IMG/VR virus record: IMGVR_UViG_2728369482_000003 | Coordinates: 56,528 to 120,527 of that record | Length of the DNA stretch: 64,000 nucleotides | Strand: one strand, 5' to 3' | Source: a virus | Lineage: Duplodnaviria; Caudoviricetes | Shown here: positions 6,035 through 29,500 of the stretch, in pieces | How the letters are laid out: each line of letters begins with the position of its first letter | How positions within the stretch are numbered: position 1 is the stretch's first letter | Notes under the pieces: model-generated | What the model was told of the DNA's origin: nothing | Database searches by the model: none | The model's input: only the letters and a program-made list of their open reading frames with translations | Position numbers and translations under genes: made by a program

Positions 6035-6505
6035 ATGATCGATTCACAAGTTGAAAAACAGGAACTAAACCTGTACCTGAACCGGACCTACTATCCAACC
6101 GGTACCAACGGATCATTAACCGACGGAATGCGGGAAATCAGTAAAACCATCGAACTACCCTGGAAGGATAACCAGCCCCGCATCAGCTGTATACCGGAAG
6201 GAACCTACCCGGTAGTGATCTATAATTCACCCAAACACGGTCCGAGCCTGCTGCTGAAGAAAGTACCCGGCCGCTCGATGATCGAAGTCCATTCGGCCAA
6301 CTGGGCCATGGGAAAAGACGGTACCGGTAAAACCCCGCAGCTGCTGGGCTGCATTGCCCCGGTGACCCAGCTGGATACCGAGACGGGTGGTCGGCCCGGC
6401 GTGGGCTGGAACTCCGGTAAAGCCCTGGAAAAAGTCGAAGCCCTGACCTTCCCTGTTATCAAGGCCGGTGGTCAGGTATTTCTCCACATCCGTAAAGCCG
6501 CTTAA
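6035..6505 (+). CDS. DUF5675-family protein, putative peptidoglycan hydrolase/endolysin
   Basis: L.R...T.G.L...TIELPW..N...SCIP.GTY...HSAN...L.GCI pattern with a His/Cys pair typical of DUF5675. Confidence 0.7.
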   Translation: MIDSQVEKQELNLYLNRTYYPTGTNGSLTDGMREISKTIELPWKDNQPRISCIPEGTYPVVIYNSPKHGPSLLLKKVPGRSMIEVHSANWAMGKDGTGKTPQLLGCIAPVTQLDTETGGRPGVGWNSGKALEKVEALTFPVIKAGGQVFLHIRKAA

Positions 6506-12041: not shown

Positions 12042-13112
12042 ATGGGCACATATCCTTTGATTGTAATTCCTTCAGTAATCAACAAAATCATTCTAGGTGA
12101 TATACCAATTAACCCTCCTCCACGACTTCCTACTAAACCAACTATACCAACCGAACCGAAGAAACCGGATTTAAAGCCTATAGCTGATTTTCCATTATTG
12201 GTTTTGATGAAGTATGGATCCTTCATTACAGGATTTGCTTCATTCATTATTTTTGTCATCAATTTATTAAATTTAGAAAGAACTGGACGCTTTACTTTAC
12301 TACCTACCCTATTATTTATATTCTTTGGCTGGAGATTATCTCGCTATATAACCAACAAGAAATTAGATGTCATTATAGACAACCAATACTTAGAAAGTAA
12401 TTACGAATCAGACGTTGAGAATTATAAAACCTTTGAATTACCCCAATATCAAAAAAACGTTCAACACTATCGTACGTTATACGATTCATACAAAATTACC
12501 AAAAAGAGATGGGAAGAAGAGTTAACAAAAAGAGAAGATGAAAAATATAAAGCAAGTTTGAAAACTGAATTAATTACAATTCTACTAAAAGGTTCAAAAA
12601 CACTTATTAAAAATAAAAAGAGAATAATTAAAGGAACTTCTGAGGAATTATTTTTATATTCATTAAATACACATTTTCCAGGAAAAATATTAACCGGTTT
12701 TAGTATACCTGTGGCGGGGGAAGATTATTTATATACACCCGACTTTATTCTATTTGAAAAAGAACTTAATCTGTATATCGACATAGAAATAGATGAGCCC
12801 TACGTTGGCCGTACCGGAGAGCCCATCCATTTTATAGAATCTTCTGATCAAGTACGGGATGCCTGTTTTATAGAAAACAATTGGATTGTCGTTCGTTTTA
12901 CCGAAAAACAGGTTTACGGGTCACCAACGGCTTGTTGCCATGAAATAGCTCGTGTAGTTAATCAGATCAAACCTATCTATGATTGGGCTGACCCGAGTAT
13001 TACTGTAACCGTAGAACCACAGTGGACACTACAAGAAGCCATTCAAATGGCTAAGGATAATAGCCGAAATAAATATTTACCTTTTTTCAACTGGTTTTCA
13101 CCAGTTAAATAA
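12042..13112 (+). CDS. membrane-anchored DUF559/Vsr-like PD-(D/E)XK endonuclease
   Basis: Pro-rich N-terminus, two TM helices and a coiled coil, then YTPDF...IDIEIDEPY...PIH...D..RD..F..NNWIVVRFTE. Strongly AT-rich. Confidence 0.7.
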   Translation: MGTYPLIVIPSVINKIILGDIPINPPPRLPTKPTIPTEPKKPDLKPIADFPLLVLMKYGSFITGFASFIIFVINLLNLERTGRFTLLPTLLFIFFGWRLSRYITNKKLDVIIDNQYLESNYESDVENYKTFELPQYQKNVQHYRTLYDSYKITKKRWEEELTKREDEKYKASLKTELITILLKGSKTLIKNKKRIIKGTSEELFLYSLNTHFPGKILTGFSIPVAGEDYLYTPDFILFEKELNLYIDIEIDEPYVGRTGEPIHFIESSDQVRDACFIENNWIVVRFTEKQVYGSPTACCHEIARVVNQIKPIYDWADPSITVTVEPQWTLQEAIQMAKDNSRNKYLPFFNWFSPVK

Positions 13113-13114
13113 CG

Positions 13115-13513
13115 TTATTGTTTATTTCCTGTGACAGTCGTTGTTGTATACGCTTTATCACTATCTGTATTAGCTATACTACCAGTAACGGCTGTGTAGC
13201 TAAAACCATTTTCGGTAAATTCTCCTGTCAATTTTTGATTGGTATAACTGGGATCTCCAGTAAATGTTTTACCATTCATAATAAGTTCTTGTCCACCCAG
13301 TTGTGAACTAGTTAATAAAAGACGATCCTGAGAAGAGCCTTTCTTTATATCAACCGAACTAACCCCTTGTTGGGTGTTATAAATAGTACTATTGATTGAT
13401 ACAACCTGTTGATAACGTATGGAATACGTACCCGTATAATCCGGCGTAGCTTCAGTGGATTTACAGCTACTACCCAGCACAACGGGTAATAGCAGATAAT
13501 ACAGCTTTTTCAT
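13115..13513 (-). CDS. lipoprotein (beta-rich)
   Basis: MKK, hydrophobic stretch and LGSS-C lipobox. Confidence 0.75.
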   Translation of the reverse strand: MKKLYYLLLPVVLGSSCKSTEATPDYTGTYSIRYQQVVSINSTIYNTQQGVSSVDIKKGSSQDRLLLTSSQLGGQELIMNGKTFTGDPSYTNQKLTGEFTENGFSYTAVTGSIANTDSDKAYTTTTVTGNKQ

Positions 13514-13515
13514 AG

Positions 13516-13866
13516 TTAAGTGGTTTGTTTGTAACCTATATATTCATATTGGGATTCGGGAATGTTTTTCTGGTTTTGATCTATAAGACTGATTACACTT
13601 GTAAATCGTAAACCTTCATCGGTAAAGGTTCCAACAATACTCGGATTAGGAATTTCAGGATCGTGTACAAATTCATTACCTGTTAATACAACCTCAAATA
13701 GTTCTTCATTATCAGGAATCATGAGTAATCTGTTTTTAGATGATCCCCGTTTGATAGTTAACTGTGAGACCGATCGTGTAACATAATTGATATTTACCGG
13801 AAATAAGGTCTTTTTTGAACACCTGACGGTATACGTACCCAGGTATTGGTTGATATCTTCGTTCAT
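13516..13866 (-). CDS. signal-less paralogue of the adjacent lipoprotein
   Basis: YLGTYTVR...VSQLTIKRGSSKNRLLM...GTFTDEGLRFTSV aligns with YTGTYSIR...VSSVDIKKGSSQDRLLL...GEFTENGFSYTAV. Confidence 0.65.
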   Translation of the reverse strand: MNEDINQYLGTYTVRCSKKTLFPVNINYVTRSVSQLTIKRGSSKNRLLMIPDNEELFEVVLTGNEFVHDPEIPNPSIVGTFTDEGLRFTSVISLIDQNQKNIPESQYEYIGYKQTT

Positions 13867-13950
13867 TGGGTTGATAAGTAAGTAACCATTGTTCTCCTGA
13901 TCTCAGGATCAATGGTAGTACTACTTACTCACGAAGTCAACTCCTATTGA

Positions 13951-14388
13951 TTAAGCGGCAATCTGATAAGTTACAAATGTATGTTTTTCGGGAGTATACA
14001 AACCTACCTTTTCACACTCAGCCCGGGTAAAAAACTCGATGGTAAAATCCATGGTGTTCTTTTTCCGGGCTGCTTTTTCCAAAGCATACCGTTTGTCGGT
14101 TACACCGGTTACGTCCTGTAACCAGCCTTCTTTTTTGATCTGGTAAGCCCAGTGCTCACAGGCTTTGAACGTCCGGTTCAGCTTGCAACAGGCTTCCTTG
14201 ACCAAGCAAGTGTCTACTTTACTAGTGTCACCATTTGGAAACACCGTGTCTACTAAAAAATACAGTTCTTCATCTGACCAGATAGCGGGGTTAGCCGAAT
14301 GCCCGTTAATCGTATAATTACGGGGAGATTGTAAACCATTGATTCGTTTCATAACTTTAACTATCAAATCACCATGAGCCTGGCTCAT
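13951..14388 (-). CDS. putative Myb/SANT-like HTH DNA-binding protein
   Basis: WSDEELYFL...ACCKLNRTFKACE resembles the W.xEE..L...L.RT..A pattern. Confidence 0.4.
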   Translation of the reverse strand: MSQAHGDLIVKVMKRINGLQSPRNYTINGHSANPAIWSDEELYFLVDTVFPNGDTSKVDTCLVKEACCKLNRTFKACEHWAYQIKKEGWLQDVTGVTDKRYALEKAARKKNTMDFTIEFFTRAECEKVGLYTPEKHTFVTYQIAA

Positions 14389-14417
14389 GGCTTGTTTTGG
14401 ATTAAATGTTTGGAAAT

Positions 14418-14451
14418 AAAAAAGCCCTCCGGACCTTCCGGAGGGCTTTTT
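14418..14451. terminator. bidirectional intrinsic terminator
   Basis: aaaaaa-gccctccgga-cct-tccggagggc-ttttt, a perfect 10-bp stem. Confidence 0.85.
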
Positions 14452-14508
14452 CGGTAAAATGGATTACCGAACGGCTAATACTATACGTACGTTTTACGGA
14501 TTGACTAT

Positions 14509-14934
14509 TTACAGTCGAACGTGTCCTTCTTTGATGGTGAATTTGTAAGCCGGATTTTCCGGGTCGTCTTCGAACTGAAACAGCTCGACCATGTACTGGT
14601 ACTGTTTATCCAGAAAATCAGCAATGTTCAATTGCTGCAGAATACCTGGGATTTTAAAACCATACCCTTTACCTACTCGTTGAAGCTTCAAAATTTGGTC
14701 GTCTTCTTCGTTAGCTTCAACAGGCATTACGATCAGTTCTTTGGCCCGACCTTTTCCCGGTGCTTTACCGACTTTGAAGTAGCCATCCAATGGCGTATCC
14801 AGTTCTTCAATTACTTTAGTGTGCAGTACGATCTCACCCCGTTTGGTTACGTTGCCTTCTAAAACGGGGGACGTTTGGGGACGCTTTAACTGAAAATCTT
14901 TTCGGTGAAAGAATTCGACATCAACCTTTTTCAT
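14509..14934 (-). CDS. hypothetical protein, possibly AbrB-like swapped-hairpin regulator
   Basis: 141 aa. VTKRGEIVLHTKVIEEL resembles the AbrB/SpoVT hairpin-helix. Confidence 0.35.
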   Translation of the reverse strand: MKKVDVEFFHRKDFQLKRPQTSPVLEGNVTKRGEIVLHTKVIEELDTPLDGYFKVGKAPGKGRAKELIVMPVEANEEDDQILKLQRVGKGYGFKIPGILQQLNIADFLDKQYQYMVELFQFEDDPENPAYKFTIKEGHVRL

Positions 14935-14983
14935 GTTAGGGATTTGTTTGGCGTAATTTGGACACGATTAACAATCGATACCA

Positions 14984-14991
14984 CAAAGGTA
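14984..14991 (-). promoter_or_regulatory. Bacteroidota sigma-A -7 box (TAnnTTTG)
   Basis: TACCTTTG on the minus strand ~50 nt upstream of the 14934 start. No clear -33 TTTG. Confidence 0.55.
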
Positions 14992-15073
14992 AGTATCCGT
15001 TCGTATAAATGGTTCGACATTTGTACAACCCAAATAGGATTATACTATAACTCAAATATACAAAAATTACTTA

Positions 15074-15098
15074 TTGGTATACGTCTCAAGTATACCAA
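15074..15098. repeat. 9-7-9 inverted repeat, operator-like
   Basis: ttggtatac-gtctcaa-gtataccaa in the AT-rich intergenic region, flanked by direct aaattact copies. Confidence 0.5.
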
Positions 15099-15148
15099 AT
15101 TACTAGACAAATTCCTATATTGATTTGATTTTACCGGTTGATCAGCTC

Positions 15149-15583
15149 TTAATGAAGGACGTGGACCCGGCGGTAATCCGCCAGGATTGACTTGACTTCC
15201 TCATTTTCCTGTCCGTTAATCCAATGGAGTTGAATGGTGTATCCCTGCTCCCGTTTGAGCGCGTACCTAAGTTCCAGTGTTTCATTGCTATACCGTTGGT
15301 ATAATTTTTCTACTTGTTCGGTATAACCCCATTCCAAATACTTTCGAATGAACTGTTGATCAGTGAAGACCTGAATCTTTTTGTCGGCAGGTTGATGATC
15401 TGATAACCACTGTAAACCGTCTTTGACAGCCAGAAAACCACCAATAATGTTTGTTGAATCAGCTATATCGATCAGGTTTACCTTAGAATCAACCAGAAGG
15501 TTATTCTCCCGAACGGTATACGCCGTATGAATTGGTCCGCCTGGATTCGGGTAGCAATGAGCGGTGGTGAAAATTTGAATCAT
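15149..15583 (-). CDS. RNase HI-like protein with degenerate active site
   Basis: IQIFTTAHCYPNPG / STNIIGGFLAV..GL / IQVFTDQQ / LHWINGQENEEV follow the RNase HI motif order, but only the second Asp is retained. Confidence 0.65.
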   Translation of the reverse strand: MIQIFTTAHCYPNPGGPIHTAYTVRENNLLVDSKVNLIDIADSTNIIGGFLAVKDGLQWLSDHQPADKKIQVFTDQQFIRKYLEWGYTEQVEKLYQRYSNETLELRYALKREQGYTIQLHWINGQENEEVKSILADYRRVHVLH

Positions 15584-15585
15584 CG

Positions 15586-16125
15586 TTAGAGTGAATCGAA
15601 ACTGAATTTAGGTTGAACTTCAACTATGGGTGATTTGGGAGGCTGGGTAGCACCACGCTTCTGGTGAGCCACAATCTGTAAAGCAGCCGGGTTATGTTTT
15701 TTGAAATATTCTATCCGGTTACCGTTAAACAGGTAATGGGGATTGATCCAGTATTCATTCATACACCGCCGAGCCAAGAATCCATTTTTGATTAACTGCT
15801 CAATCGAAGCATAAAAAGTGGGGCGGCTGAATCGTACGGCTTTACAGACGTCAACCGCTCGTAGTTTGACAATATCCTGGTTCTTCTTCAGGGTATACGT
15901 TATGTGTAAGAGTAGATCCCGGGAGGATGGACTCAGTACCCCAAATACCAGGTCTTCGGTTGTCTTATCATAGTAGAGCTTACAGCTTAATCGTTGATCA
16001 CTGTAATACCCTTTCCGTAGTTCTTCATAATCGAGGGTTACATCTTCTTCAAAAACAGTTTTAATGGTTGACGACTGAATGACTCGTATTACCGGCAGTC
16101 GGTACGAGTAGATAAAAGGATTCAT
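15586..16125 (-). CDS. repL: RepL-like replication/maintenance HTH protein
   Basis: HTH (VCKAVRFSRPTFYASIEQL...GFL) followed by the YWINPHYLFNGNR signature. Start placed at MNPF (16125). Confidence 0.65.
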   Translation of the reverse strand: MNPFIYSYRLPVIRVIQSSTIKTVFEEDVTLDYEELRKGYYSDQRLSCKLYYDKTTEDLVFGVLSPSSRDLLLHITYTLKKNQDIVKLRAVDVCKAVRFSRPTFYASIEQLIKNGFLARRCMNEYWINPHYLFNGNRIEYFKKHNPAALQIVAHQKRGATQPPKSPIVEVQPKFSFDSL

Positions 16126-16139
16126 AAAAGTCTGATTGA

Positions 16140-16370
16140 TCCGCAAGTAGTAAAGATTTCTAACACATTTTTGGTTCGATTTGGTTAACATTTTTGATAC
16201 TCTTAAAAGTTAATATTCTTTACCATACCCCTATTTTTCTACCGTAAAACATATAACCCTTCATTGATCCAGTATAACTATAACAGGTTAAGTTAGAAAC
16301 ACCCTATGCTATTTAATTGGTAATCAATAATCTATAACACATTTTTATGTTAACTTTATACTAACACGGG
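16140..16370. other. AT-rich origin-like region with short direct repeats
   Basis: taacacattttt at 16161-16172 and 16335-16346, each followed by gttaac. Several tataac copies. Lies directly upstream of repL. Confidence 0.35.
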
Positions 16371-16487
16371 AACCCACGGAAAAACGGGAAGCTTGGATTC
16401 TTTTCCGGATTAAACCTGAATAAATCCGAATTGAATTACGGACCAAACTCGTCCATTCAGGCTCCTGACCCGGTGAAGCAGTTCGGT

Positions 16488-16495
16488 TACCTTTG
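16488..16495 (+). promoter_or_regulatory. Bacteroidota sigma-A -7 box upstream of the RNAP gene
   Basis: TACCTTTG 6 nt before ATG 16502. The track's TTG start lies inside this box. Confidence 0.5.
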
Positions 16496-16501
16496 CTCAT
16501 T

Positions 16502-19500
16502 ATGCCCTACCAGCCTCTTTGTCTGAATCCCCAGGACCCAACCGTCAAGCAGTTTATCAACCAGTACGGTATGCGGGAAACGTACCGGATCTACACCCAG
16601 CACCAGTACTGGTTGCCGGACTTCACGGCGTATCAGAACCGGACCCAGGCGGACGTCCTGCCTACTCAGGGAGCTATGGATTACCTGCAGTCGATGGTCA
16701 GTCTGGATCAGTTCAACACGGACAACCTGGCAAACATCGGAGTCGAACTGCCCCAGGGTACTGAAGCGGCTTTCTGGCGGGATACGTTTTATTTCGGAGA
16801 CAGTATCAGCCGGGGAGCCCTTTCGGAAGAAGCCTTTCACGCCGTCTTTCAACGAGTAATTCCAGGTACTGAACAACAGGACCTGCTGGACACGGGTAAA
16901 CAGCTGCTACAAGCGGATCTGAAAGTACTGGGTCATACCAGTCTGAACGGCTACTACCAGACCATGCTCCAATCGGCTCCCCAGACCTACGAAAATCTCT
17001 CGAAGGAAGCGGGACTAAACCGGCTCTACGAGGAGAAACTGGCTACTGAGTTTGTCCGCTGGAACACCTACGGTAAACAGGCAGCCTGGGAAGCTGACTG
17101 GACGAAACGATTGGCTCCGTACCTTGGAGCTAAATCGGCCAGCCGGATCAGTGGTCTAATCAGCCGGCTGTTTACCCGGTTGAAAGCCGTTATGGGGTTA
17201 TACGACAAAAACCGGCTTAAAGCCGATCTGTTCTTTTCCCGTCTTCGCTCAGGTGTCTACCAGACGGCTAAGGTAACCGAAGCGGGAAACCTTAATACCG
17301 TCCCCACGACCCGGCTCATCCGACTGGGTAACGGACAGACCGTATCGGTTCGGGAATCCACCCAGCTGCTGCGAAATCTGGGAGCCCTGGTGCTCCAGTT
17401 AGGGGATCACGATTTATTCAGTTACCTATCCGAACCCGAACGAATCGAGAAAGCCCTGGAATTAATGAGCAGCCAGTATGGAAGGACACCTGGTGGAAAA
17501 CAAGTGTCACTGGTTTTAAAACCTACCTATTTTGATAAGGTATCAAAGCAGAAAGAAGTCAACCCAGAGTACCAGTTGATCAAAGCGGATCTGGAAGCTT
17601 ACCTGGGTGAGCTGCGGAGCGTATCGACCCTGCTGGATGAATCGGAAGAAGACGAGATTGGGGGCGGCATAAACGAGTTTGCCGGCTACGACAAGGAAGC
17701 CAACGAGATCGGCGGGTTTGCCGGGCTGTCTACCTGGGTCAAGCAGTTCATTGCCCGGACGGGTATTCCCCGCCTGGATAGTAACGGCCTTCCCCAGGTT
17801 CATACGGTAGATACGGGCAATGGAGTCATCGAACTTCCGATCCTGGATGTAGTCGATCCCCAGCAGGTGTATACCGGTCTGGCCCGGAGTTTATCAAATA
17901 CTACCGGGGTCAACGACCGATTGGAAAAACTGCTGGTCCTGACCCAGTTCGACGGTAACCCGGCTACCCGGGCCGTGACCGATCAGCTCCTTCGGGATAT
18001 GGCCCCGGTTCGCTACCAGGCTACCCCGGCCCTGCAAGCCATCCAGGAACGCTTCACGCTGACGGATGGTATCCGAACACCCCAGCAGCTGGATCGGGCT
18101 TTACAAATAGCGGATGCCCGGTTGACGGCCAGGGATCGTTCCGCTATTACCCAGCAGGCCTTTACCCGTTTGCAGGAAACCAGTCCTCGGGTGTTACGAG
18201 AAGAACTGCTGGCGGCTATCCGGACGGATACGCTGGATAGTTATCTGTCTTCGGCCGGTAAAAACGTACTGATCCGAATTCTAAAAGGATTCGATCTCTG
18301 GAAACGGGACATGCTGAATATGCGGGTAGATCCATCCAACGGACTCTCGGTAATCAGTGAAGCCAACGTGGAACGGGCCAGCAAACAGCTCCTGGCCCGC
18401 TGGGAGAGTAACTGGAACCGACGGACTACTGAAACACCAGATCAGCTACCCACTGGACCGGATGTTGTCAACAGTCGAGTAACCTTGGAAACAAAGGATT
18501 TTCCGCTGGTTCAGCTGGAAGCCCTAGCTTTACCCGAACAAACGGCTTACATCGAATCCGTATTTGATCGGGAAGTTGATAAACAGCTTCGCTTTTTAAA
18601 CCGGTTCGGCATTCAGGTACCGTCGGCTTATCTATACTACCGGCTTCAATGGTTTGCCGAACAACGGTATCCTGCATTACCCGGCATTAACCAGACTCGT
18701 TCAGCCCGGTTAAAGGATTTATACCCGATACCGGATAGTTTGTTGTTGACCCCGGATGATCTGGGTTTACTGGATAAATACGTCCAGAACCCAGCCGTGT
18801 CTCCCTACCAGGCAACCGGCTCCAAAGGACTCGAAGCCGGGATGCGGACACGGCTGCAGAAACTGGCCGAGGGAGCCGCCCGTTTCGACGAGTCGGCCGT
18901 GGACAGCTCCTACCAGAACGCAGAAGGCAAAACCATCTACAGCTACCAGCAGAAAACCTACAGCCTGGAATTTTTCAACTGGTTTGGGCAGACCGGTTTG
19001 ACTAAACTGGAAGACCTGTACCGGACCGGTAACCGGACCCGGCTCCGGGATGATCCGTCCGGTAATCCGGTTTACCTTCAGCTCGATAGCTGGGCTTTGC
19101 AGAAAAACCGGCTGCTCAAAGCCATCCTGACCGATCCGGCCGTACGGGCCCAGCAGGGTAAACTCACGGCCTTTACCGTGGACGGTACGACCCAGACCCA
19201 GCTGGAAGGAACCCCGGACAACGCCCGTTCAAGACCCGATGCCCAGGCCGGGGAAGGGGTTACCTACGGAGGGATGTCCCCCCGGGAGTTCGACCAGTTC
19301 AACCTCAACAGCCTGGTGTCTCGTTCGACCACGGTGGGCAGTCTGACCATCAGCCCGGTGTTCCTGGGCAACCGGGAAACCAGTAAGACGGGGGAGTACA
19401 TGAATCTTCCGTTACTTACGGGTCTTATCGAAAACGATCAGCTGACCGATAAGGGAGCCAATCTGCTACTGGACGAGATCCAGAAAGAATACGAACGAAT

Positions 19501-22500
19501 TCAGCAAACCTACAAAGAAATAAACCCGGACGAGAACGGGAAGCCTAGGTATTCAGCTGAACTTGAAAAGGCCCAGAACTACCACACCGGGAAATCCCTG
19601 AAACCCGTGGTGGTCAAGGATCCGACCCGCTTATCGGTGACGGTTCACGTACCGAGCGCCGGTAAAGATTTTCGGGGGCTGCAGTTCACCGACGGACTCC
19701 GGGGCTTACTCCCCGGTAACTGGCAAACACTACCCCAGCCGGGTGATACCGAAGCCGGTAACCTGATACTATCGGCCCTGGCTGGTTATGACTTTCCCCG
19801 CCAGAAACTACTGGCTCCGATCAAGCAGCAGATCCGGGCTAACCTGGACGAGCACCTGGACCGTTTTGCCCAGGAAGGACTCTGGAAAGCCGATCTTTCA
19901 GGTCCCACGACCCTGCTGAATCTCCGGCTGAGCAAAGCCCGGGTGGAAAACAAGCTGGTATCGGACCTGCTGAATAACATCGCCATGGGGCAGCTGGCCT
20001 ACGGGGATGCGGCTCTGCTCTACAAAAACGACGGGGTAGACGTCTTCAAACGACTCAAGGGGCTCAACGCGGCTATCATTAACTTTAAAATACCCTTCAG
20101 CTCCCCGGCCCAGGGAATTGATGAACCGGCTACGTATCTGAAAGCTTTGACCATCGGAGAACCGACGGCTGTCAGTGACGTCTCCGGGGGCTCGATCGAT
20201 CTGGCCGATGCTCAGGGCTACCAGAGTGTTCAGGCCCGTCGAAAACACCTCTACGGAGCGGGCCGGCTGGACAGTCTGCAGGTCGAAGTGCTCGACGCCA
20301 TACAGGAAGGCAAACCTGTCCGGGGCAAACTGCTGGCCCGGTTGCGGGAATCAGGGATTATGTACAACTCGGAGAAGACCGTGGGAGCCGACGGGCAGCA
20401 GTACAAAAAGCTCTCGGAGACGATTCTCTCCAAAGAACTTACGGCCGATCCCTACCCGATCACCAAAGAACAGTTTGATCAGTGGGCCAGTCTGGACAGC
20501 TACAACCGGACCCGGCTGAATCCCGGATCTCCCGAAGTAAGCTCCTATATCGACGACAAATCTGGTCAGCGGGTCTACCGGCAGTGGGTCCCCAAGCCCG
20601 GCCGCCGGAGTCTGAACGAGCTTCGGTTGAAAATGGACGGCTTTGAGCGGGTCGGGGACAACTGGCAGTTTCGGGGTTATGAACACCGTATCGATCTGGT
20701 AACACCCCTCTCGGCCAGTAAAACCCTGAACGTGAATGTTCACGAAACGAGAACTGACGCTGGTCAGCCCGACTGGGGGCAGGTCGATGACCGGAGCATT
20801 CACCAGCTGGATTTCAGCTTTTACGGGCTGCAGACGGAAAACCCTTCGGGTAAAACCAAGATTGTCGATCCGACCCAGATGCTGGAGATCATTGCCAACG
20901 AGTTGGGAGACGATGCTAGGGTCTGGTTCGAACAGGAATTTATCGGCAAGAACCAGATCGAAACCCTCTGGCAAAGCTACCTTCAGCAGCGGGATTCGAC
21001 CAACTACCAGCTGGCAGAGAAAGTCTTCCAGGACGAATCGGGTAATCTGACGCTCCACCGGTTCCGTCAGCAGGCCTTCGAAGCGGTTATTCGCTCGGGT
21101 AAAGACAAACAGACAGTTGATCTGTTCGATCCCCAGCATAACCTGAATCTGAACCTGCCCCTGACCAGGGATCAGTTCATCAGCCAGTTCTTTTCCCATT
21201 TCTCCAAAGGAGTACTATCCCACAAACGGGCGGGGGATTCACTGGCCCACGTGTCTTCGTTTGGTCACCAGGTCATTAAAAAGCTCCGCCGGGTCAAGCT
21301 CGACGACGGTTCGACCAATATCACCTGGGACGTTATCCGGGACGGCTCCCGGGAATACCAGCTGGCCCTTGGGCAGGGTCTCTCGGGTAGTTTGGCCCCA
21401 TTCCGCTACAAGCACGAGTTCGACGGTAAAAGGCGGATCGAGCCAACTGGTTACACCGATTCAAAAGGGAATACCAACTCCAGCTGGTTTAGTCAGGCTA
21501 CTACGCTACTGGGTGATCAGGACTCGGTCTACGTACTGGACAGTCTTCGGCACCTTAAACCCCGGCTGGAAGAAACCGCTCCCGGCTCCAATGTGTACCG
21601 GCAGACGGGGTATTTCTCCGAAGCCCTGATGCCGGTACACGACGATCAGATTCGGGAGCTGACGCCGGACCTGCGGTATAGCTTTGGGGTCCGGATTCCT
21701 TCCCAGGACAAGCACTCGGCCATGAATGTGGAGTGGGTGGATACGCTGCCGGTTTTCATGGGTTCCAGTGTGATTCTGCCCAAGGAAGTCGTCGAGCTGT
21801 CGGGTTCCGATTTTGACATCGACAAACTCTATTTGACCCGCTTTGATGGATACTGGAAGAAAGATCGGAACAACCGGAATCAGTTCGTAGCTTACGGATC
21901 GGAGCAAACCGACGAAGCCCGGTGGGAAAGTTACGTCCATTACCTGCTGGATCATTACCCGGCCATCAAACGGGAGCTTCGTCAGAAACTCCAGGATCCG
22001 ACTTATCAGGATTTAGCTGTAGTAGTCCGGGCTCTGCAGGCCGATCAATCGGAACAGTTACTGGATGACGAACAGTTGTCGGACTGGACGGCCGCCAGTC
22101 TCCAGCTATACTTTGCCGGCGATCTAGCTGGTTTGAAAGCCGGGCTGGACAGCCAGTACCAGCAGGCCCTGTCAGAAGTCCTCTCTCAGTTCGGCCTGCC
22201 GGCCAGTCAGAACACCTATACCAGTCTGCCCAGGGCGGAACAGGAAGCCCTGCACGTGGGGATCATCCAGAACCGGATGCTCTCGCTCCAACAGGGACTC
22301 CTGGCCAACGATACGACCATCAATGACAGTAATCCGACGGGTGGTCAGTACAACCAGCCGGCGGCTCTGGATAAACTGAACGAGCTGAAGGGAGAAACCC
22401 AGGACGGCACCCGGCTGTTTGGTGAATCGGTGGCTCCGATTTCGACCCACTGGCAGCTGACCCACAGCAGGGTTCATCAGAAAAACGGAGTGGGTAAAGC

Positions 22501-25500
22501 CCTGATCGGTATCGGGGTGAATACCAACTTGTTTCTAATCAATGCCGTCCGGCTGGGCTTTCAAGTCCATCCCGACTACCTGCCTAAACTGGACGACAAC
22601 CGTTCCCATGACGGGATCTACCGGGCCCAGACGGTGGGGAAAAACGGCGAGGCAGTTCGGAGCTTTGATATCAACTCGACGATCATTACGGCCGATACCG
22701 ACGAAGCCAAGGAAGCCCTGAACGCCTACTACCAGCTCAACAGCGATACCCAGGCTGTGGTACTCCACCTGACGGGGATTGGCTACAGTCTGCTCGACGG
22801 ACTGACACTGGTCAACCAGCCGGTGATTCAACGCTACGTGGCCCTGACCGAACAGGCCCGCCGGGTCAAACGAGGTATTGGGGTTATCAGCAAGGAAGAA
22901 GAAGGACTTCGGTTTGCCAGCAAGGATAAACTGGTCCGGCAGGCGCTGGGCTTATCGGATACCGACAAACTGGACCTATCCGGAAGCTACACCGTCGAAG
23001 CCCTGCGGAACCAGTTGGCTGGTTACCGCAAAACCGGAACGTATCAACGGTCCTCAATTGATGGACAACTGCTGACCGATTTTCAGAACCTGGTCGAATT
23101 GAACGAGTACGCCAGTAACTTCGTCCGGTTCATCAAGCTCAAAAAAGGGTTTGGTCGGGAGCTGCCCGCCTTCGATCAGCTGGTCAAAGCCGGTGAACGA
23201 CTGGGGTTTGGAGCCGTAGAACCCGAAGCCGCTCCGATCGATATCAAAGCCAAGCTGGAAGCCAAACCCAGACTGGCCGCCCAGTATTTGAACCTGATCA
23301 ACCAGATCGTCCCCCGCTCCCAGGCCCTGCAACAGCAGGTGATTCTCCGCCGGCACCCCCTGTTTACCGGACTCCAGCAACAGGTCAGTAATCAGCTAAA
23401 CATGGTCTCGGCGGCCGATCAGGAGATTCTGGCCCGGGCGGTGGAAACCTTTTTGTTAACCAAACTCTACCAGCAGCAGGGCTTCCAGCTGGATCCGGCC
23501 AGTGTATACCAGGACGGCGGGGACGAACGAATCACCCGGCAACTTCAGGCCTTTCAGCGGGATTACGCGTTTGTCCGAAAAGATGAGAACGGACTGATCC
23601 TGGAAAAAAGTATCTTTGCCGATAACCCGATCTTCGAGCTGCTTCAGCCGGTAACGGGTACTGATGGAACCAGTACCCTCCGACTCGGCGGAGCTCTCAA
23701 GCTCAGTCCATCCCAGCAGGAGAATCTGCTGGATGCGTTCCAGGATCTCTACACCCGGCCGAACCAGCCAGTGATCGACGGACAAACGGTTGGACAACTG
23801 ATGGCTACCCGGCTGGTGAATTACCACCTGGTCAAGGAAGGGTTTCAGTTTACGGTCAACAGCATCAGCCGGCTGTTTCCCCCGGCCGTCTTTGCCCAGC
23901 TCAGCCAGCAACTCGATCAAATCCAGGCTAATCCGGACGTATCCGGAAATACGGTAAATCAGTGGTCCGCTGACCTACTGACCAGTCTGGGTCGGGACGT
24001 GAACTACCAGACGTATGTTAAGCCCTTACGCAGACCAACTGGTAAAAACTCATTAGCCAGTCTGGTTAAACAATCCGGATTCTGGCAGTACCAGACGGCC
24101 GACGAGCAAGTGAGTAAACAAGCCCTGACTACCGACCTGGTACTAGATAGCACCCGGATTCCCGCTGATAAATCCCAGGAGCTGTATCCCAGTATGGGTC
24201 TGGGGTATTCACCCAAAACCGGATCGGTTGATTTCCCCCGCTTTATTCGGGTTGAAGAATGGATGAACGGGGGTACGGGTGAGTACGGCGAGGAACTACC
24301 CAGCTACAAACAGGCTAAAACCTACGAGCTGGTGAGTGTTATCGGTACCGATGGAAAGGTGATTCCCCTGTCACAAATCGAAGCCAGTCCGGAAGTATCC
24401 GGAAGTAAAGCCCGCTACGTCGAAGTCATTCCATCGGGAGCCAAAGGAATCTCGGGGGCTACCGGCTTACCGGCCCACTACAGCCCGGCAGCCAAGACCA
24501 AACGGGATGCCTTGAGTAGTCAGGTTAAGCCCGGTTCGGCTACGGCTAACTACTATGGATTAGCGGGGAATCCAATGCTACCTGCTCTAGTAACGGGTGT
24601 AAGTCAGTCACCGATAACTATTGTCGAAAAACCTGTCGTTACCAACAAAGAATTGGTCATTTCTGTTTTACCGGAAACGACCGAAAAGGGTAAGCGGGCA
24701 GAAACCACTACGAAGTTTGGGGTTGAGAAGCCGCTGAGCTACGAGCAGCTGGGAACCGAGCAGAAGCAGTTTGTGGATAAGCTCCAGTCATTTGTGCTGA
24801 CTGATTCGTTTAATCCCCGGGATGCCGAGTCGGTACTGGTACTGGAAGGGTCGGCGGGTACTGGTAAAACAACGTCGGTAAAAGTAGCCCTGCAGCAGCT
24901 ACTGGAATCCGGCCGAGTTTACCCTGAACAGATTATGCTGTCAGCTCCTACGCACACGGCTCTGAAGACCTTGTTCCGGTCCGTTCGGGGAGTAAGGCAT
25001 CGAAACCGAAATCCGATGAATACGGCCCGTTTTTACAAAAACAACGTAAAAACAGTTCAATCCCTGCTGGGAGCCGTTCGTCGGGTCAATCAGAACGGGG
25101 AACTTCAGTTTTCTATCAGCAAGACCACCAAGGAAAAACTGCTGGATATCCGGTTGCTGATTATCGACGAAGCGTCCATGATTTCCAATGTTCGGGAAAA
25201 GGGAGCAACGGTTAGTATGTTGGAAGGGCTTCAGGGTTTACAGGACGAACTACCGAACCTGAAAATTCTGTACATCGGGGATCCGAACCAGATACCTCCG
25301 GTGAATGGAAAAGAAAGTGTTGTTTTTAGTCTGTACCGGAATAACCTTCATCGGCTGACGCAGGTATTCAGGCAGTCGATGCAGAATCCGGTCATTCGAA
25401 CGCTGACCCGGATCCGGGAGAAGATTGATCAACCGACGGATCCGCTGGATTACAAATCAGCCATCCATAACGGGGAAGGGATTGTATATACCGGGTCTTC

Positions 25501-26572
25501 CGCTGCCTTTATGGAACAGGTACGGGATCAGTTTACCTCGGACGGTTACGCAGCCAACAAAGATTTTACCAAGGTTATTTCCTACACCAACCAGGCCGTA
25601 CAGCGGTTTAACCAGCTAGTCCGTCGGTACCGGTTCGGAGACCTGCCGAAATTTCTGGAAATTGGGGATGTCGTGATGGGCTACGCCAATACCGATATTA
25701 TCAACGGACAGGAGTATGAGGTCCGCTCTATCACTGAGAATCATCCGATCCAGCTGGACGAACTACTCAACAGCAGTACGGCTACGGGTCAACGGCAGCT
25801 CCAGTTACTAACCGATGAATTTCCCCGGCAGGTTCAGCAGCTACGGGCTAATCCGCCCATTGGCTACAAGGTAGAACTCGAAGAAGTTAACTCGATCAAG
25901 GCTGAATTCGACGAATCACCCCGGCAGACTAGTTATCTGCTGGACGTCAAGAACGAGTCCGATATCGATTACATCCGGGAGCATCTGAATCTGGTAGGAG
26001 CCGTACGAACAAAGATCAACGCTACCTGGTCGGAGTACAACCGAACCAAAAACCGGAGTTTATTCGGCCTGATTCAGGAGCTGGAAGGCGTTCGACAAAG
26101 TCTGGAAATGATTAACTTTAACCAGCCAATCATTCAGTACCAGAACCAGTTCTACCCCCAGAAGCAGCTGGTGTTGATTCTCCAGACTGCTGGACAAAGC
26201 CCGGACCAGATTGAACAGATTCTTAGCCGGGGTAATATCGTGGACAAGACCTACGATTATGGCTATGCGATTACAGCCCATAAAGCTCAGGGAAAAACCT
26301 ACGTCAACACGCTGATTAACCTGGAAGACATTGACGGTAATAACGACCGGAGACGGCTAGCCAATCCCAAAGAAGTAAACCGGATTCGGTACGTAGCCTT
26401 GTCCCGGGCTACTGGCATCGATTACGTACTGACCCCCAAAGCTGAATCCGTTTCCCAGCCCATTACCGTTAAACCTTCCCTATTTGACATCGGTACCCCG
26501 GGAGAATCCCTGGATGAGCAGACCGATACTGATTTACGGCTCGACCAACCCTGCGCCAAACCCACCGCCTGA
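16502..26572 (+). CDS. virion-associated single-chain two-barrel DNA-dependent RNA polymerase (crAss-like) with N-terminal zincin-like domain and C-terminal SF1B (Dda/RecD-like) helicase
   Basis: RIPSQDKHS (21692) and catalytic GSDFDIDKLY (DFDID 21809-21823), plus ADAQGY and K.S motifs. EEAFH...EEKLA zincin-like region. Helicase motifs GSAGTGKT, SAPTH, IIDEASM, GDPNQIPPV, LTQVFRQ, YAITAHKAQG and YVALSRA. Confidence 0.88.
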   Translation: MPYQPLCLNPQDPTVKQFINQYGMRETYRIYTQHQYWLPDFTAYQNRTQADVLPTQGAMDYLQSMVSLDQFNTDNLANIGVELPQGTEAAFWRDTFYFGDSISRGALSEEAFHAVFQRVIPGTEQQDLLDTGKQLLQADLKVLGHTSLNGYYQTMLQSAPQTYENLSKEAGLNRLYEEKLATEFVRWNTYGKQAAWEADWTKRLAPYLGAKSASRISGLISRLFTRLKAVMGLYDKNRLKADLFFSRLRSGVYQTAKVTEAGNLNTVPTTRLIRLGNGQTVSVRESTQLLRNLGALVLQLGDHDLFSYLSEPERIEKALELMSSQYGRTPGGKQVSLVLKPTYFDKVSKQKEVNPEYQLIKADLEAYLGELRSVSTLLDESEEDEIGGGINEFAGYDKEANEIGGFAGLSTWVKQFIARTGIPRLDSNGLPQVHTVDTGNGVIELPILDVVDPQQVYTGLARSLSNTTGVNDRLEKLLVLTQFDGNPATRAVTDQLLRDMAPVRYQATPALQAIQERFTLTDGIRTPQQLDRALQIADARLTARDRSAITQQAFTRLQETSPRVLREELLAAIRTDTLDSYLSSAGKNVLIRILKGFDLWKRDMLNMRVDPSNGLSVISEANVERASKQLLARWESNWNRRTTETPDQLPTGPDVVNSRVTLETKDFPLVQLEALALPEQTAYIESVFDREVDKQLRFLNRFGIQVPSAYLYYRLQWFAEQRYPALPGINQTRSARLKDLYPIPDSLLLTPDDLGLLDKYVQNPAVSPYQATGSKGLEAGMRTRLQKLAEGAARFDESAVDSSYQNAEGKTIYSYQQKTYSLEFFNWFGQTGLTKLEDLYRTGNRTRLRDDPSGNPVYLQLDSWALQKNRLLKAILTDPAVRAQQGKLTAFTVDGTTQTQLEGTPDNARSRPDAQAGEGVTYGGMSPREFDQFNLNSLVSRSTTVGSLTISPVFLGNRETSKTGEYMNLPLLTGLIENDQLTDKGANLLLDEIQKEYERIQQTYKEINPDENGKPRYSAELEKAQNYHTGKSLKPVVVKDPTRLSVTVHVPSAGKDFRGLQFTDGLRGLLPGNWQTLPQPGDTEAGNLILSALAGYDFPRQKLLAPIKQQIRANLDEHLDRFAQEGLWKADLSGPTTLLNLRLSKARVENKLVSDLLNNIAMGQLAYGDAALLYKNDGVDVFKRLKGLNAAIINFKIPFSSPAQGIDEPATYLKALTIGEPTAVSDVSGGSIDLADAQGYQSVQARRKHLYGAGRLDSLQVEVLDAIQEGKPVRGKLLARLRESGIMYNSEKTVGADGQQYKKLSETILSKELTADPYPITKEQFDQWASLDSYNRTRLNPGSPEVSSYIDDKSGQRVYRQWVPKPGRRSLNELRLKMDGFERVGDNWQFRGYEHRIDLVTPLSASKTLNVNVHETRTDAGQPDWGQVDDRSIHQLDFSFYGLQTENPSGKTKIVDPTQMLEIIANELGDDARVWFEQEFIGKNQIETLWQSYLQQRDSTNYQLAEKVFQDESGNLTLHRFRQQAFEAVIRSGKDKQTVDLFDPQHNLNLNLPLTRDQFISQFFSHFSKGVLSHKRAGDSLAHVSSFGHQVIKKLRRVKLDDGSTNITWDVIRDGSREYQLALGQGLSGSLAPFRYKHEFDGKRRIEPTGYTDSKGNTNSSWFSQATTLLGDQDSVYVLDSLRHLKPRLEETAPGSNVYRQTGYFSEALMPVHDDQIRELTPDLRYSFGVRIPSQDKHSAMNVEWVDTLPVFMGSSVILPKEVVELSGSDFDIDKLYLTRFDGYWKKDRNNRNQFVAYGSEQTDEARWESYVHYLLDHYPAIKRELRQKLQDPTYQDLAVVVRALQADQSEQLLDDEQLSDWTAASLQLYFAGDLAGLKAGLDSQYQQALSEVLSQFGLPASQNTYTSLPRAEQEALHVGIIQNRMLSLQQGLLANDTTINDSNPTGGQYNQPAALDKLNELKGETQDGTRLFGESVAPISTHWQLTHSRVHQKNGVGKALIGIGVNTNLFLINAVRLGFQVHPDYLPKLDDNRSHDGIYRAQTVGKNGEAVRSFDINSTIITADTDEAKEALNAYYQLNSDTQAVVLHLTGIGYSLLDGLTLVNQPVIQRYVALTEQARRVKRGIGVISKEEEGLRFASKDKLVRQALGLSDTDKLDLSGSYTVEALRNQLAGYRKTGTYQRSSIDGQLLTDFQNLVELNEYASNFVRFIKLKKGFGRELPAFDQLVKAGERLGFGAVEPEAAPIDIKAKLEAKPRLAAQYLNLINQIVPRSQALQQQVILRRHPLFTGLQQQVSNQLNMVSAADQEILARAVETFLLTKLYQQQGFQLDPASVYQDGGDERITRQLQAFQRDYAFVRKDENGLILEKSIFADNPIFELLQPVTGTDGTSTLRLGGALKLSPSQQENLLDAFQDLYTRPNQPVIDGQTVGQLMATRLVNYHLVKEGFQFTVNSISRLFPPAVFAQLSQQLDQIQANPDVSGNTVNQWSADLLTSLGRDVNYQTYVKPLRRPTGKNSLASLVKQSGFWQYQTADEQVSKQALTTDLVLDSTRIPADKSQELYPSMGLGYSPKTGSVDFPRFIRVEEWMNGGTGEYGEELPSYKQAKTYELVSVIGTDGKVIPLSQIEASPEVSGSKARYVEVIPSGAKGISGATGLPAHYSPAAKTKRDALSSQVKPGSATANYYGLAGNPMLPALVTGVSQSPITIVEKPVVTNKELVISVLPETTEKGKRAETTTKFGVEKPLSYEQLGTEQKQFVDKLQSFVLTDSFNPRDAESVLVLEGSAGTGKTTSVKVALQQLLESGRVYPEQIMLSAPTHTALKTLFRSVRGVRHRNRNPMNTARFYKNNVKTVQSLLGAVRRVNQNGELQFSISKTTKEKLLDIRLLIIDEASMISNVREKGATVSMLEGLQGLQDELPNLKILYIGDPNQIPPVNGKESVVFSLYRNNLHRLTQVFRQSMQNPVIRTLTRIREKIDQPTDPLDYKSAIHNGEGIVYTGSSAAFMEQVRDQFTSDGYAANKDFTKVISYTNQAVQRFNQLVRRYRFGDLPKFLEIGDVVMGYANTDIINGQEYEVRSITENHPIQLDELLNSSTATGQRQLQLLTDEFPRQVQQLRANPPIGYKVELEEVNSIKAEFDESPRQTSYLLDVKNESDIDYIREHLNLVGAVRTKINATWSEYNRTKNRSLFGLIQELEGVRQSLEMINFNQPIIQYQNQFYPQKQLVLILQTAGQSPDQIEQILSRGNIVDKTYDYGYAITAHKAQGKTYVNTLINLEDIDGNNDRRRLANPKEVNRIRYVALSRATGIDYVLTPKAESVSQPITVKPSLFDIGTPGESLDEQTDTDLRLDQPCAKPTA

Positions 26573-29500
26573 TGGCCTGTACCCTTCCCTACATCCAGAA
26601 ACTCTCCGTTCCGTCTTCCGAGAAAACTCGGCTGGAAGACCTACACTTTCAGATCGGTCAGCAGCTGCGGGCCCATCAGTCGGCCGACGGCTCTACGTTT
26701 ATCCTGAAAGGTGGCTATCTCCGGCTCAACTCCCCGGGTTCTGCCGCCCGGACTGAGCAGGAAGCTTTGCTGGACTCGATCAACAGCCAGTACCCCGAAC
26801 CTGTGGTGCGAATCGAGACCATTCAGGAAGCCTACGATCCGGGAGACGGTGAACTGACCTACCGACCCATTTCGGTTGTGGGCGTTGACGTTCGGCCCCT
26901 GCTGAACCCCAGCTACCGGGACCAGATTGGAGAACTGACCAGCCCCGAAGAATCGACCCTGACGGGGATCGGTGGGAATCCAGCGGAGACTGTAGTTCAG
27001 GCTGATCTGGCCCGGGGTCTCAAGGATTTTGTACTGGATCCCATCCAGGATCCCGACGGGTCGGGCGATCTCCGGTTTGTGACCGAAGCCCACCACGAGC
27101 TGTTTCAAAAGACGGCCGAGCAGGTGACCAAAAAGCTCCGGAATTACCTGGATCTGCTGGAAGGAGGATCGGTCGAACGGCCTGGCCAGCAGGTGACTAT
27201 CCAGCAACTTCGGGAGCAGCTACAAGCCTTGGAGAATCCGGATAGTCTGGCCCAGATCGAAGCCGTCTCCGATTTTATCGTCCAGGCTTCGGGTTGGCTG
27301 GACGGGCTTTACAACACGTTTTTTCTCGACGAAGACTCGGTCCGCTCCACCCAGCGGGAGCTGCAGACGGGTATCAACCGAAAGACCGGACAACTACTCA
27401 CGCCAGCCGAACGGGATACCAGAATCAACTGGGTTGCCCGGCAACTAGCCAAGCAGAAACACTACCTGTACCTGTTCGACGAGCTGGGCCGCTTCAAACA
27501 GCAGCTTCAGGAGCTCGGCTACGTCTCTGCTACCCAGCCCGTTTACGACCGGGGTGAACGTTTACAATCTGAAACCCGGGATATTCTGGGCCAACTCGGC
27601 GTGAGTCCGGGTAATACCGAATCGGTACTGGACGTCTTACGTTCCGAACAGTTTACCGAAGGAGCTCTACGGGCCGAGCTGTTCCGGGTACTGTCCGTTA
27701 CCCATTCTGACCAGCCGGGGCTTACTATCCACCGGACCGTAGAAGACTACCTGGAGCAGGTGTTGAAAAGCTATCCGGGCAAGACCGTGGAATCGGTTCT
27801 GGACGAAGCCCTGTCTAAAGCCGTTCGACTCAAGCAAAGCCTGGTCGAGCACCACTACGAACTGGTGACCAGCTGGCTCTGGCCACATATCCAGGCCAAG
27901 CAGCAACGCTACACCGGCCCGGACAAGCTCGACCGGGATCAGCTGAAGAGTTTGCTAAAGACGGCAAAAGAGGACGAAGGTATCTTTCAGTATGGGCTGG
28001 ATGCTCCCATTCAGTCATCCGATCCCGTGACGGCTATTGTCGCCAGTCTGACCTCGGATGCCCTGTACCGCTCGGCCGAGGAAAGCCGGCTGAATTTGAG
28101 TAGGCTTCTTTCGGTTCGGGAACCACTGGGGCTGGAAAAAACCATGTCGCCGGCCCAGATCGAAGCCTACCACCGGGCGATGACCCATGATACCATCCTG
28201 CCCCTGGAAGGCCCTGACTCTGGGGAAGCCGGTGAAGACTGGGATGGACCGGTACTGACCGTTTCCGTCTTCGGACAAACCAAACGAATCAAAGGGTATA
28301 CCAAACGGGCCTTTCTGACCGAGTACAACACGGCCCTGCAACAGGCCCACCAGAAAGAATTCTTCGGTCAGCTACCGGGTAAACTCGATGAGCTGATGAG
28401 TCTGGTTACGGTTCAGGACGGTTACCTGGATGTATCGGACCTGAAGGCCCTGCTTCAGACCAGCTCCCAAGACGAATACCTGGGTCCGCTGCTAAGTAAG
28501 CTCTTCAGCTACGACCGATCGATGGGTAGCTGGCAACTCCGGACCAATCCGACGGGACCAACGGATCAGAACTACGTCCGGGGTAAACTCCGTTCGGGTC
28601 TGATCCAAACGTTTTTCAGTCTGCACCAGCAGCCCCTGGATCAGATGAGTAAAGCCAGCCTGTTTACCCGGTGGAACCTGCTGGATCAAACGGGCAAGCC
28701 TAACCGGGATGAACAAACCAGTATCAACTCGGACCTGCAACAGAACAGTCAGGAGTACCGGCTGACGGATCCCGAACTACAGGGTAAGCTAACGGGCAAA
28801 AAGAATGAATCCTGGCTGAATAACTTTGTCGGCTACCGGGTATCGGATACCGAACACTACCTGTACGTACGGAAGCTGGTAATCAACAAAACGACCGGTA
28901 AACCTGAATCCCGCTGGAGCTGGGTGAATATCTATCAGCCCGGTTCACTTACGAACGTTACCCGGCTCTACTACGCCAAAGGGGAACTGATCCGGCCGGC
29001 CGATCGGTACCGCACCGACCGGGGCAGCTTTGGTATCCAGGTCCAGCAGCAATGGGCTGACCTGCAAACCGGTGATTCAGTCCGGAAGACTTACTTCGAC
29101 GGACTCTGGGATGGTTACGAGCGAGCCAATCGGCAGCTGGGTACTCCTGCTTTAGCTCACGGGGTACTACCCCAGGTCGAACGGCTTCAGTCCTTAACCG
29201 AAGGACCCAAGGGTCACTGGGAACGGCTCTGGGACTGGATCAAACAGCACACCCTACTCAGCTGGGTACGCGACAGCTACCACTGGCTGACGGGGGAAGC
29301 GACGGAAGATCAGCAGGTAGGCCGAAAACCAATTTACCTGGATAATTCACCGGTTCACCAGATCCGGGCTCGCTATACCAGCTTTATTCCGGATGGACAG
29401 CTGGAAGGCGATCTGTTTCGATCGGTCCTTATGTACCAGTCGATGGCCAGTAGTTACCGGGAGCTGACTCGACTCGATCCCCAGGTTCAGGCCCTAAGAA

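Follow-up and report, generated by a model that had tools for sequence, protein, structure and literature searches.

A predicted crAss-type virion RNA polymerase and a Dda-type SF1B helicase share one open reading frame in an integrated crAss-like phage

Results

Layout of the polymerase-helicase gene

The window is a 64,000-nucleotide stretch of viral DNA (IMG/VR record IMGVR_UViG_2728369482_000003, positions 56,528 to 120,527). In this study, we analysed one gene of the window, which encodes a predicted crAss-type virion RNA polymerase and a predicted helicase of superfamily 1B (SF1B) in a single open reading frame (ORF). On the plus strand, translation from a TTG start at 16493 gives 3359 amino acids (aa) and from an ATG start at 16502 gives 3356 aa, with no stop codon before 26572. 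The whole protein is identical to the database protein P0002. Conservation was read from two alignments, in which the polymerase core of 29 related clusters (A1) and the helicase of 16 fused homologues (A2) were aligned. The parts of the gene and the flanking giant genes are as follows.

16502-26572, plus strand: whole gene in a single open frame, with predicted virion RNA polymerase body, linker, SF1B helicase and C-terminal tail
16514-16528, plus strand: N-terminal PLCLN motif, with the 'CLN' consensus at the start of A1
20240-23812, plus strand: polymerase core as modelled, aa 1250-2440 (AlphaFold2, Foldseek, tblastn)
21803-21826, plus strand: catalytic GSDFDIDK (DxDxD) motif, aa 1771-1778 (sequence, A1)
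24497-24676, plus strand: linker, low-complexity and predicted disordered, aa 2669-2728 (end of blastp match, model confidence, GC content)
24677-26449, plus strand: predicted Dda-type SF1B helicase module, aa 2729-3319 (PHROG 325, Pfam, envelope of a hidden Markov model of stand-alone helicases, Foldseek)
24848-24874, plus strand: helicase motif I (Walker A) GSAGTGKTT, with Lys2792, the invariant K83 of A2
25157-25180, plus strand: helicase motif II (Walker B) LIIDEASM (D183 and E184 nearly invariant in A2)
25277-25303, plus strand: helicase motif III GDPNQIPPV (Q224 invariant in A2)
25994-26245, plus strand: helical insert of ~85 residues in the helicase, aa 3168-3251 (low model confidence)
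26264-26299, plus strand: helicase motif V YAITAHKAQGKT (K555 and G558 invariant in A2)
26390-26416, plus strand: helicase motif VI YVALSRATG (Y591 invariant and R596 nearly invariant in A2)
26450-26569, plus strand: C-terminal tail with SLFDIGTPGE (26477-26506) and LDQPCA (comparison of C-termini)
6505-11943, plus strand: upstream giant virion-type gene, 1812 aa, ending ...KQCH (syntenic giant genes in relatives)
26572-31110, plus strand: downstream giant gene, 1512 aa, beginning MAC..., its start overlapping the stop of the polymerase gene

A first-pass annotation, made from the letters of this DNA, had placed the polymerase and an SF1B helicase in one frame, with the helicase at about 24720-26440. 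The ORF was indeed uninterrupted, and the module boundaries of 24677-26449 agree with the earlier extent. Orthologues of the downstream giant gene (1506-1518 aa) also come after the polymerase in loci L005, L006 and L044. Neither flanking giant gene (1812 aa and 1512 aa) had a family match in PHROGs or Pfam.

The polymerase part

No family for the polymerase body was found in Pfam or PHROGs. Because phmmer of the whole protein against PDB sequences returned helicases only, structure prediction was needed for this part. The AlphaFold2 model of the core (aa 1250-2440, 1191 residues) had a predicted local distance difference test score (pLDDT) of 83.6 and a predicted template modelling score of 0.81. 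When the model was compared with the PDB using Foldseek, it matched 6vr4_A, the phi14:2 gp66 polymerase (E 6.8e-18, probability 1.0, template modelling (TM) score 0.55, 1247 columns). This was the sole significant match, and the runner-up had an E-value of 0.08. The global alignment to gp66 covers the region that would hold the two double-psi beta-barrels, and beta-rich blocks flank the catalytic motif.

The sequence around the catalytic motif pointed to the same family. By tblastn, aa ~1708-1799 around GSDFDIDK matched proteins annotated 'putative RNA polymerase' in crAss001 and in many Bacteroides crassviruses (40% identity, E 9e-9), and 305 residues of the cr128_1 'putative RNA polymerase' were matched as well. 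An exhaustive profile-free search with aa 1250-2440 recovered 1071 related clusters, 161 of them at E<=1e-30. In the DxDxD loop of A1, D524 and D528 were invariant and D526 was nearly so (30 homologues). The gene sits among giant genes, and the large terminase (TerL), portal and capsid-like genes lie upstream on the same bacterial contig (C9). The DFDID polymerase body of the first-pass annotation is thus crAss-type by its Foldseek match to 6VR4, and the assignment of the gene to the crAss-type virion RNA polymerases of the phi14:2 gp66 family is well supported by the predicted structure. From homology and gene order, the protein would be packaged in the virion, and by analogy it would act as a polymerase, including in early-gene transcription.

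The window protein and gp66 (PDB 6VR4) have in common the core fold, the DFDID motif and a site among giant genes beside structural genes. They differ in sequence, with no match detectable by phmmer and 15% identity in the structural alignment, and in the length of the body, which is ~2700 aa in the window and 2180 aa in gp66. gp66 has no helicase, whereas the window protein has one.

The helicase part

The helicase part (aa 2729-3319) matched PHROG 325 'Dda-like helicase' with an E-value of 2e-61 and Pfam AAA_19/AAA_30. Its sequence also matched the PDB helicases DSH9 (8jx6) and Dda in phmmer. The first-pass annotation had stated that all SF1B motifs were intact, and motifs I, Ia, II, III, IV, V and VI were each located; those beyond the list above are Ia (SAPTHTA) and IV (LTQVFRQ), and the cores of V and VI read ITAHKAQGKT and VALSRAT. 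The model of the module was of medium quality overall, with a well-modelled core, and its best Foldseek match was T4 Dda (3upu, E 3.7e-21), followed by DSH9 (8jx6), RecD2, Pif1 and RecD. These SF1B matches ranged from E 1e-21 to 1e-13, and the SF1A helicases Rep, PcrA and UvrD scored lower. The TM score of 0.65, normalised to Dda and obtained from a model with pLDDT 66, suggests that the module covers most of Dda, a helicase with accessory pin (1B) and SH3-like 2B domains.

In A2, the Walker A Lys, the Walker B Asp-Glu, the motif III Gln, the motif IV Arg, HKxQG and the motif VI Arg were invariant or nearly so. This conservation of catalytic residues across the 16 fused homologues argues for selection on helicase activity. 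These results indicate that the module is a predicted Dda/RecD2/Pif1-type SF1B helicase with intact motifs. As a member of this family, it would translocate 5'-3' and unwind DNA in an ATP-dependent manner.

The closest annotated relatives of the module are stand-alone SF1 helicases of Intestiviridae, which are ~480-490 aa long and are encoded in the replication block beside a uracil-DNA glycosylase. These helicases (e.g. crAssphage KP06_gp14) and T4 Dda (3UPU) share the SF1B fold and all motifs with the window helicase, which is 31% identical to crAssphage gp14 over half of the module (E 5e-23). Dda and the Intestiviridae helicases are free replication-block proteins of ~440-490 aa, whereas the window helicase is fused, ~590 aa long and interrupted by the insert of ~85 residues. 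The module is ~100 residues longer than the ~480-aa stand-alone relatives mainly through this insert (aa 3168-3251), in which pLDDT was below 50 (model residues 459-542), and the stand-alone relatives cover only ~50% of the query.

The junction and the protein termini

The blastp match to the closest helicase-less relative, P0014 (2684 aa; 48% identity over the whole body), stops at aa 2668. The region at aa ~2650-2750 is rich in V, A, T, P, S, G and K, and aa 2710-2748 had pLDDT values of 25-33 and are predicted to be disordered. The first-pass annotation had described a Pro/Ser/Thr linker here, and its observations on the gene were borne out in every point. In a scan of the junction, no promoter or terminator signal above chance was found. 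The GC content was 0.46 in the linker and 0.50 in the helicase compared to 0.56 in the core, with GC at third codon positions of 0.59 compared to 0.68 in the core. This fits a module of separate origin without proving it.

After the helicase, a 40-residue tail ends in LDQPCAKPTA. The LDQPCA ending also closes P0014, which has no helicase, and P0015, which has one. Since this ending is common to helicase-less relatives, the helicase is an insert between the body and a conserved tail and not a simple C-terminal addition.

The first-pass annotation had also considered that the junction might be an assembly artefact. For such an artefact, whether of assembly or of gene calling (a false join of two genes, or an overlooked stop or frameshift), nothing speaks other than the modest drop in GC, and we regard its probability as practically nil: the frame runs uninterrupted through the junction, the tail peptide of helicase-less relatives lies 3' of the helicase in the same frame, and the join recurs in the genome of an isolate, in one JGI contig, in contigs from Logan and ENA, and in a RefSeq phage. 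The isolate protein is P0017 (3581 aa). Its parts follow the same order, and it matches with 100% identity an ORF on a 574-kb contig of Spirosoma terrae KCTC 52035. The JGI protein is P0015 (3669 aa), encoded on a 124-kb contig with the same gene order as the window. An assembly artefact was therefore rejected on the open frame and on the independent assemblies with the same join.

Cysteines were observed at both ends of the window polymerase, which starts MPYQPLCLN (PLCLN at 16514-16528) and ends LDQPCAKPTA (LDQPCA at 26540-26557). Among ~60 polymerase homologues inspected, with or without helicase, a C-terminal Cys (C645 of A2) lies in the last ~6 residues of nearly all, and an N-terminal Cys lies in the first ~12 residues of most. 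The neighbouring giant proteins also have Cys at the facing ends (...KQCH, 11929-11943; MAC..., 26572-26583).

Distribution of the fusion

We surveyed the domain architectures of crAss-like polymerases. A single-seed phmmer search with the window helicase undercounted fusions, as Pfam scans of the longer relatives revealed missed cases, and this was corrected by multi-seed jackhmmer. With the latter, a helicase was found in 10 of the 149 nearest polymerase clusters (P0015, P0016, P0017, P0018, P0027, P0028, P0031, P0045, P0046 and P0047). All ten rank in the top 34, of which they make up about one third, and Pfam confirmed the eight that were scanned.

A second architecture was found when the helicase was used as query among proteins of 1847-5879 aa, which gave eleven other proteins. 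Ten of these (4.4-5.9 thousand residues) combine G[SAG]D[FY]D[VI]DK, HExxH and an SF1B Walker A in one chain; the remaining one, P0009 (1907 aa), has HExxH and the helicase and no DxDxD motif. The reference crassvirus cr50_1 (Cohcovirus hiberniae, Suoliviridae; MT774375.1 / NC_055868.1) encodes a 4774-aa protein, QOR58058.1, with HExxH, GSDFDIDKLF and the helicase (MT774375.1, 65825-80149). The coding sequence is annotated only as 'DNA helicase', and the public annotation of cr50_1 thereby hides a polymerase-helicase fusion. As in the window, a DFDID polymerase and a C-terminal SF1B helicase lie in one chain and a giant gene comes next. QOR58058.1 differs in being of the polyprotein type, with an HExxH zincin module upstream of the polymerase, and it is 27-32% identical to the window protein over short stretches and comes from a gut crassvirus and not from a prophage. 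The giant genes neighbouring the window polymerase gene showed no zincin motif.

P0017 of the S. terrae prophage (NZ_JAAFZH010000004.1) belongs to the same clade as the window protein and has body, spacer, SF1B helicase and Cys tail in the same order. Identity is 35% in the body and 27% in the helicase, and ~350 extra residues lie between the two.

We found no paper that describes or characterises the fusion in the literature text searched. Drobysheva et al. (bioRxiv 10.1101/2020.03.07.982082 / Nature 2021) mention the fusion of three giant proteins and a zincin and do not mention a helicase. In its searchable text, Yutin et al. 2021 lists the SF1 helicase as a replication gene and does not state a helicase in the transcription block, and two reviews or analyses do not mention the fusion. 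The first-pass annotation had allowed that the fusion might already be both common and characterised. Common it is, given the survey and the RefSeq genome of cr50_1; for its having been characterised, no paper was found. These results indicate that the window gene is one more case of a widespread though undescribed architecture and not a singular machine.

The helicase in a variable slot

In a tree of the polymerase core (57 rows), the presence of the helicase requires at least 7 changes, and well-supported branches force 6 of these. Sister pairs that differ in the helicase are P0038/P0045, P0024/P0027, P0046/P0052 and the window protein/P0014. On the contigs of the helicase-less P0014, P0024 and P0019, the polymerase gene passes directly into the next giant gene, which shows that the helicase is absent there and has not been split off.

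Other domains were found in the same slot. P0018 has a Kinase-PolyVal domain (aa 2605-2766) before the helicase, and P0047 has a 2OG-Fe(II) oxygenase domain (AlkB-like; aa 2899-3063) before the helicase. After P0038 come a ferritin-like gene and a separate 738-aa ART-PolyVal gene (L048:15504-17720). In the Pfam-scanned proteins with a matched extension, the helicase is always among the domains, and kinase and oxygenase occur only alongside it. Several other relatives, such as P0035 and P0052, carry tails of 1200-1900 residues without a recognised domain. These results demonstrate that the slot, which extends from the polymerase body to the next giant gene, is a cassette site with variable content.

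The prophage and its surroundings

The window corresponds to C9:164772-228771 in a 6.57-Mb bacterial assembly of 75 contigs (~54% GC, completeness estimate 100%, contamination 0.02). It forms the right part of an element at C9:~106600-228862, the right end of which is lost at the contig end. A tyrosine integrase gene (C9:108245-109468) lies to the left of the TerL, portal and capsid-like genes and adjoins host genes for a PAS histidine kinase and a MacB/FtsX permease. Downstream in the window, primase, DnaB-like helicase, ATPase and homing endonuclease genes lie on the opposite strand. The integrase beside host genes, together with the phage genes, shows that a phage of at least 120 kb is joined to chromosomal DNA; it is a crAss-like phage integrated in a bacterial chromosome. 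The fused helicase is the only SF1 helicase on contig C9.

A syntenic element lies inside the 574-kb contig of S. terrae KCTC 52035, with the integrase at 558 kb, the portal at 530 kb and the polymerase-helicase gene at 474-485 kb, and it shares the synteny of integrase, portal and giant genes with the window element. Its fused helicase is likewise the only SF1 helicase of the prophage. Reviews describe crAss-like phages as incapable of lysogeny (PMC10136315). The window and S. terrae elements look like temperate crAss-like relatives, and an integrase-bearing, chromosomally integrated crAss-like phage is of interest in itself given these reviews.

Relatives of the portal (C9:136510-139272) include Leptolyngbya phage Lbo-JY46, csAssE-Sib, Cellulophaga phages and crassviruses. 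The top annotated match was the portal of the cyanobacterial Leptolyngbya phage Lbo-JY46 (37% identity, E 5e-139), which outranked every Bacteroidota phage. The polymerase core, by contrast, had no match in Lbo-JY46 at E 1e-5, and no paper on this phage was found in the literature.

The large terminase ORF (C9:130003-133167) is 1054 aa long. Its terminase matches fall in two stretches (aa 131-502 and 528-1009), and it also weakly matches DnaC-like and primase P-loop families. This unusually long ORF may contain an insertion or intein. Just upstream of the polymerase gene, the giant-gene block is divided by a lower-GC island (0.35-0.42; 12042-16480 of the window) that consists mostly of small minus-strand genes. 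The JGI relative has a similar island, which includes an HNH gene, at the corresponding position (L044:5349-9385), and there is none in S. terrae (L006). The two island ORFs tested, 12042-13112 and 15586-16191, had no Pfam match.

Discussion

It has been reported that gp66 works far better on single-stranded or denatured templates than on duplex DNA and that QDE-1, which is related to gp66, needs a helicase and RPA (Drobysheva et al., 10.1101/2020.03.07.982082). The first-pass annotation had drawn on this preference of gp66, and it holds. We consider the coupling of helicase and polymerase in cis to be the most likely mechanism, and we judge it evenly poised between right and wrong. It is favoured because the fusion to the polymerase recurs in two very different architectures.

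On single-stranded DNA, SF1B helicases are 5'-3' motors. The helicase would be packaged and ejected with the polymerase and would thus reach the incoming genome before phage gene expression. Acting in cis, the SF1B motor would run 5'-3' on the non-template strand, in the same direction as a polymerase that reads the template 3'-5'. Such a two-strand arrangement, similar to that of RecBCD, would supply single-stranded template to an enzyme whose phi14:2 counterpart prefers it, and the helicase could also strip host proteins ahead of the polymerase. The helicase would then be an accessory boost and not a requirement of the family.

Several observations weigh against this reading. Complete polymerases without a helicase occur in the closest relatives (P0014, P0019 and P0024) and in several sister lineages, which indicates that the polymerase family does not need the helicase. 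In the clade of the window protein, the helicase modules are 22-27% identical to each other and the polymerase bodies 33-48%, and the tree of the helicase domain has long branches and does not separate one origin from several. The low identity and the tree therefore do not establish common descent of the fusion. To load, an SF1B helicase would also require a 5' single-stranded tail, for which the data point to no source. The other occupants of the slot are typical host-modifying or counter-defence domains, and the site may be one that is simply permissive for ejected cargo. Dispensability in close relatives and the unrelated occupants suit a permissive cargo site or a relocated replication helicase just as well. 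The reading as a self-melting transcription machine is plausible, and a general requirement is excluded by the helicase-less relatives.

A stronger form of the proposal is an obligately coupled polymerase-helicase motor on two strands, RecB/RecD-like, which would start and sustain factor-free transcription on the entering duplex. We hold this form to be unlikely. If it were true, the role would fall in helicase-less crass-like phages to a stand-alone SF1 helicase or to a helicase of the host, and this would explain how crAss-type virion polymerases get single-stranded template in vivo.

An independent injected effector is possible though fairly unlikely. The polymerase C-terminus would then be a permissive cargo site, and the helicase would clear nucleoid or restriction proteins or counter defence, uncoupled from transcription. 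The patchy presence of the helicase agrees with this, as does the range of other occupants of the slot in relatives, namely Kinase-PolyVal, 2OG-Fe(II) oxygenase and a separately encoded ART-PolyVal. The passages searched on polyvalent proteins (Iyer, Burroughs, Anand, de Souza, Aravind 2017; PMC5512222) already describe helicases as parts of delivered multi-domain proteins; they stress SF2/SNF2 helicase-methylase pairs along with a few UvrD-like SF1 helicases and do not mention crAss-type polymerases or Dda-type helicases. A polyvalent protein is large, has multiple domains and would be carried into the cell together with the DNA, and the same is expected of the window protein. Kinase-PolyVal (PF18762) and ART-PolyVal (PF18760) are found in the same slot of relatives and not in the window protein, which has two recognisable enzymatic modules compared to the many domains of polyvalent proteins. 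However, the helicase is by far the commonest occupant, and among the Pfam-scanned proteins the other modules were present only with it. Its recurrence with the polymerase in a very different polyprotein architecture also goes beyond what is expected of neutral cargo.

We rate as rather unlikely that the single Dda-like SF1 helicase of other crassviruses, a ~480-aa gene of the replication block, moved into the virion polymerase, where its product would arrive ready-made and, maybe cleaved off, would serve Dda-like origin opening or recombination. The best annotated matches are indeed the stand-alone 'SF1 helicase' genes of Intestiviridae, such as that of crAssphage gp14. One matching place was found per record, stand-alone in five Intestiviridae and fused in cr50_1, and no second SF1 helicase is present on contig C9 or in the S. 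terrae prophage. This small sample hints at an either/or occurrence of the fused and the free SF1 helicase. The comparison covers six reference genomes, however, and the contig end cuts the prophage inside the replication module, so that its gene set is incomplete. A late-expressed virion protein would also be an odd source for a replication helicase.

Least likely is a genome-entry motor, in which the helicase would be anchored at the envelope with other ejected proteins and would draw the genome inwards, since SF1B enzymes track single-stranded DNA and not duplex DNA. In favour of this reading, ejection of the protein is expected before or together with the DNA, and T7 and N4-like phages are known to internalise their genomes by means of ejected or early polymerases. 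However, cell entry of close relatives takes place without the helicase, no feature for membrane anchoring was detected beside the module, and we consider such a motor very improbable.

Cis coupling bears on a question of template access in the family. The sole characterised crAss-type virion polymerase barely transcribes duplex DNA in vitro, and the recurrent fusion of a 5'-3' helicase provides a concrete, testable hypothesis on how crAss-type virion polymerases would gain access to their template. The worth of the window gene itself is more practical than conceptual. As the fusion is present in prophages, one of them in a near-complete genome and another in a cultured Spirosoma strain, it is open to induction, virion proteomics and genetics and not just to metagenomes.

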